A stretch of 64,000 nucleotides of DNA from Sedimentisphaerales bacterium (GCA_028281535.1 JANQJS010000012.1:107185-171184); one strand, 5' to 3'. Counted from the stretch's first letter, positions 5,866 through 57,181 are shown. The notes: generated by a model from the letters alone, not told the origin. Translations and numbers: made by a program.

Positions 5866-6354
5866 TTGGCTGAGCAAACAAAACGATTGTATGAAGCGAT
5901 GTTCCTGATTGATGCAGCGATTGCATCTGCCGATTGGGATGGCGTGATGGCTGCGATCGATACCATTATGAAACGTGCGGACGCTGAAGTCGTCAGTACG
6001 CGTAAATGGGATGAGCGTCGTTTAAGTTATTCCGTCGATGGATGTGCGAATGGTGTTTATGCTTTGAGTTATTTCAAAGCATTGCCAGATGCGATTACAG
6101 GTTTAGAACGTGACGTAAAATTAAATGAGTTGTTTTTGCGTGTGTTAGTTCTATCGGGTGAGCATGTTACTGATGAGATGCTTGCTGCTCCAACGCCTTG
6201 TATGAAAGCAAAGGAAGATTCAGAAAAGGCCGCACAGGAATCAGCTGCTTCAGAAGCTGCACCTGCCGCTGAATCAGATGTTGCAGTCTTGGAATCAGAA
6301 GAGATTCCAGATGCTGGTATTGATGTTTTAGAAGCCGACCTGGAAACAGAGTAG
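5866..6354 (+). CDS. rpsF: 30S ribosomal protein S6 (acidic C-terminal extension)
   Basis: KRLYEAMFLID.. matches the S6 N-terminus. In-frame TTG at 5866 lies 7 nt after AGGAGG (5853-5858); the track ORF from 5827 is probably over-extended. rpsF-ssb-rpsR-rplI synteny. Confidence 0.88.
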   Translation: MAEQTKRLYEAMFLIDAAIASADWDGVMAAIDTIMKRADAEVVSTRKWDERRLSYSVDGCANGVYALSYFKALPDAITGLERDVKLNELFLRVLVLSGEHVTDEMLAAPTPCMKAKEDSEKAAQESAASEAAPAAESDVAVLESEEIPDAGIDVLEADLETE

Positions 6355-6424
6355 GTTTGTCAAGCATCAATGACACGTTTAAAACATGTATCATAAATCG
6401 ATTCGTCGATGTTAAGGAGAATAT

Positions 6425-6853
6425 GTGATGGCAAGTTTTAATAAAGTGATCATGCTGGGTAATTTGACCCGAGATCCTCAGTTGTCTTATCTGCCAAGTC
6501 AGACACCTGTGGTTGAGTTTGGTTTAGCGACCAATCGGCGTTGGACAGGCAATGATGGCCAAGCCCGTGAAGAAACTTGTTTTGTCGATTGTCGTGCGTT
6601 CGGTCGCATGGCAGAAAATATTAGTAAATATTGCAAAAAGGGTCGTCCTCTTATGGTAGAAGGGCGATTGAGCTTCGATCAGTGGGAAGCCCAGGATGGC
6701 AGCAAACGCAGTAAGCATCGTATTACGGTAGAGACATTTAACTTTGTCGATGGTGGTGGTGCTGGCGGAGGCGGCGGATCGAAATCTTTTGGTGATGACA
6801 ATAGTAATGTAGGTGCACCAGGTGGTGTGCCAGATGATGATATACCGTTTTAG
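6425..6853 (+). CDS. ssb: Single-stranded DNA-binding protein
   Basis: OB-fold N-terminus NKVIMLGNLTRDPQL, Gly-rich linker, C-terminal DDDIPF tip. Confidence 0.95.
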   Translation: MMASFNKVIMLGNLTRDPQLSYLPSQTPVVEFGLATNRRWTGNDGQAREETCFVDCRAFGRMAENISKYCKKGRPLMVEGRLSFDQWEAQDGSKRSKHRITVETFNFVDGGGAGGGGGSKSFGDDNSNVGAPGGVPDDDIPF

Positions 6854-6921
6854 TGAACACATGCTGGTTATTTCTGCAAATGAACTAGCACTTTGAATTA
6901 AAGTAGTATTGGAGAATTTTT

Positions 6922-7185
6922 ATGGCAATGAGAACCAAGTCTAAAAAACGCATGAAACCGGTTCGTGAACGACTACGTTGTCGTTTTTGTGATGAAGTCA
7001 AAGGTACTGATCAAAAACGTGCCTATATTGACTACAAAGATATCGAAACTTTGCAAAAGTTGTTGACGCAGCGTGGCAAGATTTTCTCACGTAAACGAAG
7101 TGGGAACTGTGCTTATTGTCAGCGTAAAGCTCAAAAAGCAATTAAGCAAGCTCGTTTTATGGCGTTATTGCCTTACGTAAACTAG
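6922..7185 (+). CDS. rpsR: 30S ribosomal protein S18
   Basis: C-R-F-C..IDYKD...L..F....GKI..R..(S)G.C...QR motif pattern plus synteny. Confidence 0.9.
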   Translation: MAMRTKSKKRMKPVRERLRCRFCDEVKGTDQKRAYIDYKDIETLQKLLTQRGKIFSRKRSGNCAYCQRKAQKAIKQARFMALLPYVN

Positions 7186-22612: not shown

Positions 22613-23632
22613 TTAAACCTCGACGGGTTGAGCAGGTATTGAATCATAACGGAGCCGGTGAATTGCTTCGGCATCACCGGCGACGATGAGTACGTCACCA
22701 GATTTAAATTGTAATGTTTTGTCTGGGCGGACATTGATATCGCCATCTTTTGATTTAATGGCGATAAAGACGAGTGCGTCGACATTTTCTTCGTAATACT
22801 CTATAGTACGTCCCACCAAATCACATTCATCCTCGATGTCAATTTCGTGGATTGCAATCCCATCGAAATTTTCTTTGGTGTGATGTAAAATTTCGGTCAA
22901 GGTGGGATGTATAATCAGCTCGGCGATTTCTTCACCGCCTGTTTGAGCAGGGGAGACCACCATGTCAGCACCGGCGCGACGGGCTTTTGGTTCACTGCCT
23001 TCTTCAACCACACGACAGATTATTCTCAGGTCAGGATTTAATTCACGTGCACTTAACATGATGATAATATTTTCCATATCAGAAGAGACTGCGCAAACCA
23101 AGCATTTGGCGCGATCTATACCGGCTTGAAGTAACGTGACATCGTCGGTCGCGGCACCTTGAATACATAAGTGACCTAAAAAGCTTGCCTCTTCAAAGCG
23201 TTTGTCATCTTGTTCGATTACGGCAAAAGGTTTGTCGGCATCAATGAGTCGTTCGCAAACAATGCGTCCCAGGTGTCCCCAGCCGCATACGACGGTATGA
23301 TTAGATAAAGCATCAATATTACGTTTCATTCTCTGTCTCCATAAAGCCGGTTGGTTGACAATGGATTGAATTAAATTTTTAAAAACATACGTTCCCGCGG
23401 CAATACCAAACAGCATCATCAGTAAGGCAAATTTTTCACCGGCCGGGCTTAATTGATAGTCGCTATATCCAACAGTGGTAATGGTAATCACTGTAAAGAA
23501 GAGGGATTTCCAGAACCCCCATGAATCCATGATGATCATGAATCCAAATGTGCCAATACATAAGACCATCAACAGCAAAAACAATGGTTTTGCCAAATCT
23601 CGCAAAAGGCTGGATGTGCCATCTTTTTTCAT
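22613..23632 (-). CDS. Two-TM K+ channel with RCK (TrkA-N/TrkA-C) cytoplasmic domains
   Basis: Selectivity-filter-like TITTVGYSD between two TM helices, Rossmann VVCGWGHLGR, C-terminal TrkA-C-like beta domain. Confidence 0.8.
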   Translation of the reverse strand: MKKDGTSSLLRDLAKPLFLLLMVLCIGTFGFMIIMDSWGFWKSLFFTVITITTVGYSDYQLSPAGEKFALLMMLFGIAAGTYVFKNLIQSIVNQPALWRQRMKRNIDALSNHTVVCGWGHLGRIVCERLIDADKPFAVIEQDDKRFEEASFLGHLCIQGAATDDVTLLQAGIDRAKCLVCAVSSDMENIIIMLSARELNPDLRIICRVVEEGSEPKARRAGADMVVSPAQTGGEEIAELIIHPTLTEILHHTKENFDGIAIHEIDIEDECDLVGRTIEYYEENVDALVFIAIKSKDGDINVRPDKTLQFKSGDVLIVAGDAEAIHRLRYDSIPAQPVEV

Positions 23633-23829: not shown

Positions 23830-23867
23830 GGGTGGCAGCGTCAAGCAAAGCTTGGCGATGGAGAATT
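23830..23867. repeat. Family-1 structured repeat, copy C (GGGTGGCAGC - hairpin - GATGGAGAAT)
   Basis: GGGTGGCAG, then an 8-bp hairpin CGTCAAGC/GCTTGGCG (23839-23846 / 23850-23857), then ATGGAGAAT. Near-identical to the copy at 28226. Confidence 0.6.
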
Positions 23868-23919: not shown

Positions 23920-23997
23920 GTCTCGCCAACCAGGCAGCGACCAACGGGCGCGGGTTACTTTCAGAATGGTCGCGGCGTTAAAAGTGACGAATGTCAC
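23920..23997. repeat. Family-2 structured repeat, copy E1
   Basis: GTCTCGCC-AACCAGGCA-GCGACC..loop..GGTCGC-GGCG, then hairpin GTGAC-GAAT-GTCAC. Aligns along its length with the copies at 40076 and 58829. Confidence 0.6.
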
Positions 23998-27646: not shown

Positions 27647-27992
27647 CTGCTTCTATGTCTTTGATAAACTTCTTCACCTTGGCCTGGCTATACTCATAAG
27701 CCGTTTGGCCGTTGCGAGCCGCGTTTTGGCCCTCAATTTCCATCTTCCAGCTTTTTGATAGTTGCAGTGCGTTCTCCACATATTCCTTTTGCTCAGACTT
27801 TTTACAGTCTAAAAACTTCAGCAACATCGCATGAACAATCACACTATCAATGCCTTTGTCCTTGCTGTTGCCTGCTTTACTGAATTTTACGCACAGCTCA
27901 TCGAGTTTGCCGATGGCCCAAGTGTCCAGGTTTATACCCTTAAACTTCTTGTAATCCAGTTGTCTCGAGTTGTCCTTGTCTCCTTGCTTCAT
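27636..27992 (-). CDS. Hypothetical protein (ORFan by my reading)
   Basis: 118-aa Lys-rich ORF converging on, and overlapping by 11 nt, the 27254..27646 ORF. Confidence 0.4.
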   Translation of the reverse strand: MKQGDKDNSRQLDYKKFKGINLDTWAIGKLDELCVKFSKAGNSKDKGIDSVIVHAMLLKFLDCKKSEQKEYVENALQLSKSWKMEIEGQNAARNGQTAYEYSQAKVKKFIKDIEAANL

Positions 27993-28225
27993 AATGACCT
28001 TCTATTTCCACCCTCGGAATAGTACCGTGCTTACGTGATTGTATTATAACAATATAATTAATCAATATCAAATATTAATATTGACGATTGTGATTTTATC
28101 GGCTTTTTTAGGCCATTTCTTTACCCAGAGTCGCCAGGTTATCAAAAAAAGTTTTACCCGTGATTTTTTCCTCAGGATATGATTAAATACCCCCATTCCT
28201 AAACCTAATATTGAGTATAAAAAAT

Positions 28226-41431: not shown

Positions 41432-42817
41432 ATGAAATCTTTAGCAGCTGAAAGCTTTATGTCAGACCCGAGGATTGGGCAAGCCAGGCAATTAATACTG
41501 GATAGCCTGGCTGACGCTCAGAAATCGCTTATTGGCGTAAAACCCGCCGATCCTGAGCGAAAACAAACCTATGAACAAGCCATCAAAGAAATGTGTCAAT
41601 TGCGTGGCGGTGGCTTGTTCTATCCTTATCTTGGCAGCGGTCTGGGAAATGGTGCCCTGGTCGAGCTTGCTGATGGCAGCGTCAAGTACGATCTCATCAG
41701 CGGCATCGGCGTCCATTGGATGGGCCACAGCCATCCTGACATGGTAAAGGCCTCTTTCGATGCCGCATTGCAAGATACCATTATGCAGGGCAACCTTCAG
41801 CAGAATACAGATTCATTTGAACTCATCGATCGCTTTGTCAAACTTGCACAAAAAAATGGCTCCAAGCTGGAGCATTGCTATCTATCCACCAGTGGAGCAA
41901 TGGCAAACGAAAATGCACTAAAAATTGCATTACAAAAAAATCATCCACGTCAACGTGTCTTAGCTTTTTCACGATGCTTTGCCGGACGAACGCTGGCCGT
42001 ATCGCAAATTACAGATAACGCCGCCTACCGCCAAGGACTACCATCGGTGATCGATGTCGATTACGTCCCATTCTTCAATCCAGACCAACCAGAAAAAAGT
42101 ATCGAACATTCCGTCAAAGTTCTAAAGCGACTTATCGAGCGTTACCCAGATCAGCATGCCGTCATGTGTATGGAACTCATCCAAGGAGAGGGGGGCTACT
42201 ATTCTGGTGATCGCGATTTCTTTATCGCTCTAATCGACGTTCTCAAAGAAAATAATATCGCTGTGATGTTTGATGAAATTCAAACTTTTGGACGCACAAC
42301 CCAGCCGTTTGCTTTCCAACATTTTAGTTTAGATGAATACGCAGATATAGTAACGGTTGGTAAAATGTCGCAGGTCTGTGCCACAATTTACGTAGACAAT
42401 TACAAACCAAAACCGGGTCTGATTAGCCAAACCTTTACGGGCGGCACAGGCGCTATTTGGGCAGCAAACGCTATTTTGAAAGAATTGAATGAAGGACATA
42501 TTTTTGGCGATGATGGTAAAATCGTTCAAGTTCACAATGCCTTTGTCAGCGAATTTGAAAAAATCAATGAGAAACATCCTGACCTGATTTCAGGCCCCTT
42601 TGGCATTGGTGGTATGATTGCTTTCACACCTTTTGGCGGTGATGGCGCCAAAGTCAAAGAATTCATCACAACTTTATTTAATGAAGGCGTGATTGGATTC
42701 CCGTGTGGTACGTCGCCACGCCGCGTGCGATTTTTACCGCCTATTGGATCAATCACAGAAGACGATATCAAAAAATCTTGTGAAATTATTGAAGCAATTC
42801 TTTTGAAAATTGCATAA
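41432..42817 (+). CDS. Class-III PLP aminotransferase, divergent AstC/ArgD-like
   Basis: STSGAMANENALKIA, FAGRT, FDEIQTFGRT and VTVGKMSQ (PLP lysine context). 461 aa. Sits immediately upstream of astA. Confidence 0.72.
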   Translation: MKSLAAESFMSDPRIGQARQLILDSLADAQKSLIGVKPADPERKQTYEQAIKEMCQLRGGGLFYPYLGSGLGNGALVELADGSVKYDLISGIGVHWMGHSHPDMVKASFDAALQDTIMQGNLQQNTDSFELIDRFVKLAQKNGSKLEHCYLSTSGAMANENALKIALQKNHPRQRVLAFSRCFAGRTLAVSQITDNAAYRQGLPSVIDVDYVPFFNPDQPEKSIEHSVKVLKRLIERYPDQHAVMCMELIQGEGGYYSGDRDFFIALIDVLKENNIAVMFDEIQTFGRTTQPFAFQHFSLDEYADIVTVGKMSQVCATIYVDNYKPKPGLISQTFTGGTGAIWAANAILKELNEGHIFGDDGKIVQVHNAFVSEFEKINEKHPDLISGPFGIGGMIAFTPFGGDGAKVKEFITTLFNEGVIGFPCGTSPRRVRFLPPIGSITEDDIKKSCEIIEAILLKIA

Positions 42818-56221: not shown

Positions 56222-56261
56222 ATCAACATTATAAACGTGATCGACATGATTATCAAGAGAA

Positions 56262-56300
56262 GGGTGGCAGCCTCAGCTCAATTTATTGAGATGGGAATGG
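56262..56300. repeat. Family-1 structured repeat, copy B (overlaps the 3' end of the 56278..56961 CDS)
   Basis: GGGTGGCAGCCTCAG plus hairpin CTCAA-TTTA-TTGAG (56277-56290) plus ATGGGAATGG. The stop codon (56278-56280) lies inside the hairpin arm. Confidence 0.6.
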
Positions 56301-56961
56301 GGGTTTCCTTTTCTGTGGTGGTTTGGAATCCGGATGCACTTTTTTCTAGCATTTTTTCGATTTGTTTTTGATAGGAGAGTTTTCCACCTTTGGTTAAGCT
56401 TGTTTGGATTTGTTGGTTGCCGAGTAGTTGGCCGGTGTTTGGATTAACGACATTGATGTAGACAATGACAGGTGTTTCTTTCTTTTTATCAATAATAACA
56501 TTTTCATCAAGTGCGATGATAGGTTTTGTGTCGATAAGAGTCTGTTTTATAGCGGGAACAACTTTAGATGTTTTCGTTTCTTTTTTGACCGTCAAAGGAT
56601 TGGATTGCGGGATGTTGAGTGTGCCATAGCTTTTCTTTTTTTGTTCATTGGTGGCTTGTACTTTTATTTTATCTCCGGGTTGGGCTTGAATGTGTGTTGT
56701 AAAGCTACCATCAGCAGCGACGGCAACTTGTTCGCTTTTTCGAGTGATGTGAATTTCTACCTTGGCAGGGCTGGATGTTTCGATACTTCCTGCCCGTCCT
56801 TCAATTTGCACAATGCCTTTTGAGTTTGGAGGTGAAATAGCAATGTTATGTTTATGCACTTTGATTTTTCTATCTATAGCAAAAGCCAAGAGTGCGGTTG
56901 AACAAAGAATTAAAAGCCCGCATGCTATACGAATGTTGAAATTTACGTCTGATTTTTTCAT
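56278..56961 (-). CDS. Hypothetical secreted/anchored protein
   Basis: N-terminal hydrophobic anchor, beta-rich Lys/Thr/Gln-rich sequence, no recognisable motif. Confidence 0.5.
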   Translation of the reverse strand: MKKSDVNFNIRIACGLLILCSTALLAFAIDRKIKVHKHNIAISPPNSKGIVQIEGRAGSIETSSPAKVEIHITRKSEQVAVAADGSFTTHIQAQPGDKIKVQATNEQKKKSYGTLNIPQSNPLTVKKETKTSKVVPAIKQTLIDTKPIIALDENVIIDKKKETPVIVYINVVNPNTGQLLGNQQIQTSLTKGGKLSYQKQIEKMLEKSASGFQTTTEKETPIPISIN

Positions 56962-57079
56962 CAGAGATTGCCCCTTGTTTTCTCGACATTTAAATAACCA
57001 TTATCACGACAAAGGCTATTATGCATAATTTTCAAGGGAAATCAAGGGGGAAGAATATGATCGTTATAATAAGAGTATT

Positions 57080-57172
57080 GGGTGGCAGCCTCAGCTCAAT
57101 ATATCGAGATGGGGATGGTGGAATGCGAGCAGGCCATCCCAATTTCACCTACGGTGAGCGGAGGCTGCCACC
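57080..57172. repeat. Family-1 structured repeat, copy A (full 93-nt palindromic rod)
   Basis: 12-bp perfect inverted repeat GGTGGCAGCCTC (57081-57092)/GAGGCTGCCACC (57161-57172), extended by GCTCA/TGAGC, with inner 7-bp helix GGGATGG/CCATCCC. Confidence 0.65.
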
Positions 57173-57181
57173 TGTATTTAA

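Follow-up and report, generated by a model that had tools for sequence, protein, structure and literature searches.

The window, by which we mean the whole 64-kb stretch of DNA analysed here, has a base composition of about 41% G+C, and the best named relatives of its MutS2 protein, at about 50% identity, come from MAGs of Sedimentisphaerales, Phycisphaerae and Planctomycetota. As the sequence-only reading of this DNA had reported, it contains four copies of a short repeat, which are exact matches to GGGTGGCAGC on the plus strand at positions 23830, 28226, 56262 and 57080; about 0.1 such matches would be expected from the sequence length alone. When one mismatch was allowed, eight matches were found against 1.83 expected, and none of 100 shuffled sequences reached this number. 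One of the additional matches, at 41672, is located inside a 461-aa ORF and has no hairpin, and it was therefore discarded as a chance match.

The window was also searched with a covariance model, R1, built from an alignment (A2) of 60 units from other genomes that included none from the window. In the window the model revealed exactly five units at four sites, with E-values from 1.3e-9 to 4.5e-3, arranged as three single units and one doublet; the best remaining match in the window had an E-value of 0.44. They are listed below under the name of REP units, which anticipates the interpretation argued for in this work.

23830..23861, plus strand: REP unit 1, single (R1 score 49.6 bits, E 1.3e-9), with a GG-GTGG tag, a stem CA.GCGTCAAGC / GCTTGGCG.TG containing a G.A mismatch, and the loop AAA
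28226..28257, plus strand: REP unit 2, single, with a stem of the G type and the 3' end GATGA (35.0 bits, E 2.6e-6)
56262..56300, plus strand: REP unit 3, single, of the C type (28.3 bits, E 8.4e-5)
57080..57118, plus strand: REP unit 4a, left arm of a tail-to-tail dimer (34.5 bits, E 3.3e-6)
57134..57173, minus strand: REP unit 4b, inverted right arm of the same dimer (20.6 bits, E 4.5e-3)
57080..57173, no strand: REPIN-like tail-to-tail dimer of units 4a and 4b, defined by its DNA fold and by a form matching that in relatives

The single units fold as DNA with energies of -8.0 kcal/mol (unit 1, z -3.35), -6.4 kcal/mol (unit 2, z -3.72) and -5.6 kcal/mol (unit 3, z -1.78). The hairpins of unit 3 (CTCAA/TTGAG) and of units 4a and 4b are weak and diverged. 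Relative to the family consensus, units 2, 3 and 4b are divergent, and their scores of 20-35 bits compare with 45-56 bits for a typical unit of the relatives. The C-type subtype of the window (CTCAGCTCAA...) gave no matches in a scan of a metagenome collection.

All four sites are intergenic or located at the end of a gene. Unit 1 lies within a 361-bp spacer between a K+ channel gene (start at 23632, minus strand) and a SecA-like gene (stop at 23994, minus strand). Unit 2 occupies the divergent spacer between a 118-aa ORF (start at 27992, minus strand) and a ppnP-like gene (plus strand). All copies had been described as lying upstream of minus-strand genes; this needs to be qualified for the second one, which is also located 38 nt upstream of the ATG of the plus-strand ppnP-like gene (28295), and for the third one. 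The latter is indeed found upstream of the DapA-family gene, 41 nt from its start (56221), but it also overlaps the seven C-terminal codons (PIPISIN) and the stop codon of a 227-aa ORF (56278-56961, minus strand), the annotated C-terminus of which is probably a by-product of REP unit 3. The doublet is situated between the start of this 227-aa gene (56961) and the stop of a 465-aa gene (57182), 9 nt past that stop. At three of the four sites both flanking genes run in the same direction, on the minus strand. These are typical positions for REPs, with no consistent regulatory geometry, and any effects on the neighbouring genes, such as unit 3 providing a C-terminus and stop or hairpins forming in read-through transcripts, would be secondary.

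It should be mentioned that other signals are present in the same spacers. Past the SecA-like gene there is a terminator-like hairpin with its own T-tract (23946..23924, minus strand), which is distinct from REP unit 1. A near-consensus sigma-70-like site (56256..56228, minus strand; TTGATA-17-TATAAT, 11 of 12 matches) is located upstream of the DapA-family gene, 6 nt from unit 3, and a near-consensus one (28071..28043, minus strand; 11 of 12 matches) upstream of the 118-aa ORF.

The copy at 57080 had been interpreted as a single 93-nt palindrome. The palindrome itself is real, as are its perfect 12-bp inverted repeat (57081-57092 / 57161-57172) and its inner 7-bp helix (GGGATGG/CCATCCC); the extension of the outer stem, given as 5 bp, is actually 4 bp long and follows one mismatch. 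However, the minus strand of 57173-57134 (AGGTGGCAGCCTCCGCTCA...GGGATGG) aligns with the plus-strand unit at 57080 (GGGTGGCAGCCTCAGCTCA...GGGGATGG), and the palindrome therefore consists of two convergent units, which makes five units at the four sites. Unit 4b has the sequence AGGTGGCAGCCTCC...GGGATGG and was aligned with unit 4a by eye. Besides the outer (12 bp + 4 bp) and inner stems, the dimer contains two side hairpins; its DNA fold has an energy of -27.1 kcal/mol for the plus strand and -24.4 kcal/mol for the minus strand (z about -4.8), and none of 200 shuffled sequences was as stable. The same form was found in 30-31 convergent pairs in related genomes.

The doublet in the window is bracketed by a 5-bp direct repeat, GTATT, at 57075-57079 and 57174-57178, which may have arisen by chance. 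This is the longest flanking direct repeat among 31 doublets, with a probability of about 2% under a flank-swap null. It counts against the reading of the doublet as a REP element, since Y1 transposition does not predict such repeats.

The distribution of the repeat was analysed by scanning one genome per species with the pattern GGGTGGCAGCSTCA-N6-26-GATGRRRA. At least 115 loci match this pattern, nearly all of them in MAGs assigned to Sedimentisphaerales, Phycisphaerae, Phycisphaerales, Planctomycetota or "Pirellulales", and among the matches listed there are often many loci per genome. The few matches from other phyla (e.g., L008, L024, L068 and L072) lack the hairpin, and two of these, L008 and L024, were not found by R1. 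In 60 of the pattern-matching loci the model revealed 103 units, which corresponds to 103 units per 393 kb of relatives' loci, all selected for holding a unit. Stop-free frames of at least 150 codons contain 26% of the relatives' units, compared with 80% of random segments. A literature search for this sequence and for palindromic repeats of Phycisphaerae found nothing. The covariance model R1 and a protein profile, A3, are now available for the family.

The consensus unit can be written as GGGTGGCAGC-(C/G)TCA-(variable stem and loop)-TGG(G/C)-GATGG and has a length of 32-47 nt. It is composed of GG-GTGG, an imperfect hairpin with a G.A mismatch near the foot and a variable, covarying upper stem, and a final G. 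The lower stem is conserved and consists of C-A, the G.A mismatch and then C-S-T-C-A paired with T-G-G-S'-G. A trailing GAAT, previously considered to be conserved, is not kept in the family; its 3' part is TGG(G/C)GATGG, which is mostly the 3' strand of the stem. The tetranucleotide GTGG corresponds to columns 3-6 of alignment A2 and abuts the first base pair (7-46), and the strict GTAG form is absent. Sequences of the type GT[AG]G, GTGG included, are the tag of REPs (Quentin et al., 2018, PMC6006769).

The upper stems vary greatly in sequence while the pairing is preserved. The 5' stem strand occurs in 53 different versions, and the median number of consecutive pairs is 9, compared with 0.7 for shuffled inner segments (examples of stems are ATCCCGAT/ATCGGGAT, ATCCTG/CAGGAT, ATCCGCC/GGCGGAT, AAGC/GCTT, AAAGCC/GGCTTT and AAAACC/GGTTTT). 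In alignment A2, with its 12-pair stem, 95.6% of the stem cells are paired, compared with 26-50% in controls with a slid 3' partner. Eight of the 12 pairs change on both sides, and the covariation score was reached by none of 500 shuffled alignments. The two-sided changes include C-G/G-C at the S:S' pair (45:15), U.G/G-C at the next pair, and A-U/U-A and G-C/C-G/A-U higher in the stem; the lowest pairs, C7-G46, A8-U45 and C10-G43, which enclose the conserved G.A mismatch, are invariant or nearly so. The hairpin is under structural selection. The orientation of single units relative to the local GC skew, a noisy proxy, showed no bias (17:17) and gives no additional support to a lagging-strand, single-strand mechanism.

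Two other identities of the unit were considered and rejected. A sigma-54 promoter does not fit, the GG/GC spacing in TGGCAGC-N-GC being unsuitable as judged by eye, and for an attC or integron site the RYYYAAC / GTTRRRY cores are missing and the neighbours are housekeeping genes.

Pairs of units were counted in the related loci using a 12-mer seed. There are 31 tail-to-tail (convergent) pairs, which measure 64-142 nt from outer end to outer end, and 34 head-to-head (divergent) pairs, in which the linker, about 20 nt long, is conserved (cgttttccatcaattctatt); single units are present beside both types. The part ATCAA-N5-TTG of this linker is one base off the IHF consensus, WATCAANNNNTTR. In a tail-to-tail dimer one head pairs with the other (GGGTGGCAGCCTCA/TGAGGCTGCCACCC) and one tail with the other (TGGGGATGG/CCATCCCCA), and the inner hairpins become side arms, usually one of the ATCC type and one of the AAGC type. 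Since the two arms usually have different inner hairpins, such a doublet can fold not only as a rod but also as a four-way junction. Dimers of both kinds, head-to-head (HH) and tail-to-tail (TT), have been described for tagged REPs (Di Nocera et al., 2013, PMC3733652).

In relatives, a head-to-head REP pair with the conserved linker is also carried by an element of 140-210 bp with 14-bp terminal inverted repeats, GTAYGTGTTTAGCC, for which perfect 8-bp target duplications were found in 9 of 22 cases. Copies of this element are located as follows.

L020, 928-1081: MITE with GTAYGTGTTTAGCC ends
L027, 7015-7187: the same
L030, 1763-1937: the same
L032, 1203-1376: the same
L034, 1548-1754: the same
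L070, 3956-4097: the same
L081, 4705-4911: the same
L090, 5917-6067: the same
L102, 3424-3578: the same

Several copies are inserted in the loop of another REP hairpin (e.g., AAAGCC-GAA-GGCTTT in L030) or of another palindromic repeat. The element has the appearance of a DDE-type MITE with REPs as its cargo and hairpin loops as its insertion targets; its GTAYGTGTTTAGCC repeats are absent from the 64-kb window. The boundary between ...GGCTAAACACGTAC and variable sequence, considered as a possible end of an omega-RNA or an IS, is in fact the end of this MITE with its 8-bp duplications. A second palindromic family, GTCAT(T/C)CC(C/T)GCG-AAAG-CGC(A/G)GG(A/G)ATCC, is found repeatedly in the related genomes, where the MITE has often inserted into it; it was seen at MITE flanks in L083, L085, L095, L102, L022 and L032.

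All-against-all clustering of 2780 ORFs from the 115 loci revealed no recurrent neighbour of the units, just common planctomycete families. Among the ORFs lying between pairs of units, however, we detected a gene for a 186-aa protein (L062, 6466-7026) that scores 97.8 bits with the NCBIfam model NF047646, 'REP-associated tyrosine transposase' (RAYT; cut-off 80), 29.9 bits with Pfam Y1_Tnp and 17.3 bits with the IS200 transposase model (cut-off 55). A plus-strand unit is located 59 nt upstream of this gene and an inverted one 23 nt past its stop. The protein has 2846 homologues at E <=1e-20; the named ones belong to Sedimentisphaerales, Phycisphaerae and Planctomycetota, and part of them already carry the label REP-associated tyrosine transposase.

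Seven further RAYT loci were obtained through homologues with 62-68% identity to this protein. In total, a RAYT gene of about 186-188 aa is bracketed by inverted units in seven of the eight related loci (L062, L116, L117, L118, L121, L122 and L124). In the six besides L062 a plus-strand unit lies upstream of the gene and a minus-strand unit follows 1-2 nt past the stop codon, while the eighth locus, L123, has upstream units only, and these are weak. The RAYT-flanking units of L116, L121 and L124 are of the G type, as are units 1 and 2 of the window; the GTCAAGC/GCTTGGC stems in L121 and L124 match those of both window units exactly. In a variant RAYT-flanking stem, GGCAAGC/GCTTGCC, the pairing is kept. 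A RAYT/TnpA(REP) gene, which the sequence-only reading had suggested looking for elsewhere, is thus found in related genomes, and none was detected in the 64-kb window (tblastn, best E 1.2).

An alignment of 11 homologues shows an invariant HxH motif (H67 and H69; HUH) and an invariant tyrosine, Y145, within RYIHNNP; their aligned counterparts in E. coli TnpA-REP (PDB 4ER8) are the HUH motif and Y115. Placed by motif against the classes of Quentin et al. (2018, PMC6006769) and not by phylogeny, the set [DNE]HVH / WQ / YIHNNP appears to fit class 2 (TnpA-REP), with 2.4, 2.6 and 2.7 as the nearest subclasses.

Some further observations concern the RAYT genes. In two different MAGs (L117 and L122) the gene is located just downstream of dnaX, and in L117 it is followed by recR; its presence by dnaX in both hints at vertical inheritance at a fixed locus. 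The complete chromosome CP070782.1 (L116 and L124) contains two RAYT paralogues at different loci. L049 contains a separate Y1/RAYT-like gene (6375-6944), whose product has 25% identity to the L062 protein and which is bracketed by classical GTAG-tagged REPs (ATGTAGGGTGCGT...ACGCACC) at 6205-6230, 6331-6356 and 6948-6975. The same MAG also has units of the GTGG type (57-151), and therefore two REP-RAYT systems are present in one genome. Finally, L011 contains a weak Y1-like ORF (364 to about 1000; 22% identity and E 0.17 to RAYT) without flanking GTGG units.

In the relatives inverted units bracket the RAYT gene in the layout of a classical REPtron, and the copies in the window are therefore considered to be REP and REPIN elements. 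We estimate at roughly 85% the probability that the five units are REPs of a family widespread in Phycisphaerae, with the doublet being a REPIN, and that they are handled by a RAYT. The observations behind this estimate are the anatomy of the units, their covarying stems, the two kinds of dimer, the REPtron arrangement seen in relatives and a distribution that appears to be multicopy and largely extragenic; the action of a RAYT on the units and the continued presence of a RAYT gene in the genome of the window are inferences. Of the earlier suggestion of a REP/MITE-like element, the REP part is borne out by the bracketed RAYT genes and by the imperfect hairpin with its GT[AG]G-type tag. By homology to the systems of E. 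coli and Pseudomonas, the unit would be recognised as a single-stranded DNA hairpin by its cognate HUH/Y1 enzyme, the RAYT, which, after binding to the tag and the mismatched stem, would cleave close by and join strands again; such cutting and rejoining would spread the units in intergenic DNA and maintain them there. Binding and cleavage of the single-stranded unit are known only for E. coli TnpA-REP, which needs the 5' tag and the stem mismatch for binding and cuts at a dinucleotide set by tag bases 3-4 (PMC3479197).

It is possible, though we doubt it, that the window copies are decayed relics, derived from REPs in a genome that has lost its RAYT and persisting neutrally or with small effects on their neighbours. 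A density of just five units per 64 kb, the missing RAYT gene in the window and the lack of metagenomic matches to the C-type subtype are in line with decay, and units 2, 3 and 4b are degenerate, so that at least part of the copies may be relics. On the other hand, unit 1 is a near-perfect match to the model, and the 64 kb analysed are a minor part of a genome of probably several Mb; according to Bertels et al. (2017), RAYTs typically have about one copy per genome. We find it quite improbable that the main role of the units is that of a punctuation exploited by the host, i.e., a terminator or insulator, a stabiliser of mRNA 3' ends or a site for a nucleoid protein. Such roles have been reported for some E. 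coli REPs and BIMEs, and they would agree with the position of three sites between co-directional genes, with the maintenance of the family across many Phycisphaerae genomes and with the conserved head-to-head linker. But the hairpins are not followed by a T-tract, the terminator scan reported other sites and none of the units, and the SecA-like gene already has its separate terminator-like site at 23946..23924, so the terminator-insulator proposed from the sequence found no support; moreover, unit 2 lies between divergent genes. Punctuation is compatible with the REP reading as a possible secondary role and does not offer an alternative origin.

Two explanations of another kind have less in their favour. 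The first part of the case for a MITE moved by a DDE transposase, in which the inverted GGGTGGCAGCC ends of 57080-57173 would be terminal inverted repeats and the single units broken halves, is the window dimer itself, with its perfect 12-bp inverted ends and flanking GTATT; the other is that head-to-head pairs of the relatives do sit in a real MITE. We nevertheless regard this origin as very unlikely: the GTAYGTGTTTAGCC ends of that MITE do not occur in the window, flanking direct repeats have no regular length and are missing from 18 of the 31 tail-to-tail dimers, no transposase other than the RAYT recurs in the 115 loci, and the RAYT-flanking layout is specific to the units. Nor did the unit turn out to be the terminal repeat of a known IS family, as the gene that it flanks is a RAYT and not an IS. 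A hairpin acting as RNA, whether as a cis-regulatory leader, a riboswitch or a small RNA, was the remaining suggestion, and although the stem covaries and every unit of the window is upstream of one gene or another (unit 2 just 38 nt from the ppnP-like start), we consider it scarcely credible. In the window and 18 related loci the search of Rfam 15 returned only tRNAs at the gathering score and nothing credible over the units at E <=10. The units are found on both strands and as palindromic pairs, and they bracket a transposase gene; the neighbours in the window are unrelated, with positions varying from the 3' end of a gene to a divergent spacer; and the helices are conserved in sequence, which is unusual for RNA motifs.

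Taken as REPs, the repeats add a new family to a class of selfish DNA that is already well known, and they do not constitute a novel type of element. RAYT-like genes have already been reported in Planctomycetes, and repeats of the GTAG type in the PVC superphylum (PMC3733652). Mildly notable in the family are the GTGG tag with an invariant GG before it, a head and lower stem that hardly vary among many genomes, the common doublets of both polarities and, in relatives, the MITE that carries REPs. For annotation it means that an unrecognised repeat of an unstudied planctomycete is ordinary selfish or domesticated DNA that annotators need not call an RNA gene or a regulator, and that one ORF of the window ends inside a repeat. 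The GTGG family, with its many Phycisphaerae MAGs, both dimers and a MITE that targets the repeats, is a useful comparative case and leaves the overall picture unchanged.

A bolder hypothesis, which we put forward tentatively and think more probably wrong than right, is that a long-lived, vertically inherited REPIN-RAYT partnership extends across the class Phycisphaerae and that the window units are its maintained members and not debris. As parts of this hypothesis, the invariant 10-nt head GGGTGGCAGC and the lower stem may have been kept almost unchanged from order to order, with turnover in the upper stems; doublets may fold as four-way junctions with the head or tail stem as the open end; and a DDE-type MITE may have captured the head-to-head doublet and insert into REP hairpin loops. 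To our knowledge, nearly all work on REP-RAYT systems has dealt with Proteobacteria. If the hypothesis is true, Phycisphaerae would provide a second, deeply divergent model of domesticated RAYTs and of their sequence populations outside that phylum.

The family can be compared with several known systems. It resembles the REP/BIME elements of E. coli and their TnpA-REP (4ER8; Messing et al., 2012, PMC3479197) in having an imperfect hairpin with a tetranucleotide tag at its foot and a mismatch close to it, in the occurrence as single units and inverted pairs, apparently in many and mostly extragenic copies, and in the Y1/HUH gene bracketed by inverted units, whose HUH and catalytic tyrosine motifs align. 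It differs from them in the tag (GTGG with an invariant GG before it, against GTAG in E. coli), in the unrelated stem sequence and in the host phylum, Planctomycetota. The RAYT of Phycisphaerae is distant from the E. coli enzyme (phmmer E 0.006 to 4ER8), with the motifs [DNE]HVH, WQ and YIHNNP in place of the DHLH, WE and YIHYNP of E. coli subclass 2.2.

The REPINs of Pseudomonas fluorescens (Bertels and Rainey, 2011, PMC3116915) are likewise associated with a RAYT and consist of two inverted REPs with a short spacer that form a long hairpin, single units being read as their remnants; the doublet at 57080-57173 has this form. Unlike them, the arms of the Phycisphaerae doublets usually differ in their inner hairpins (ATCC... 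vs AAGC...), and both tail-to-tail and head-to-head doublets are common in the family. The IS200/IS605 elements share the enzyme superfamily and the use of a single-stranded subterminal hairpin with a guide tetranucleotide; in contrast to these, the L062 protein stays far below the cut-off of the IS200 model (17.3 against 55 bits), and the Phycisphaerae units are dispersed by the hundred, beyond the two ends of a gene-carrying IS. The GTAG super-family (PMC3733652) and the GT[AG]G REPs of TnpA-Y1 class 2 (PMC6006769) are similar tagged stem-loops with HH and TT dimers; the super-family has been reported in the PVC superphylum, and GTGG is an accepted tag variant.
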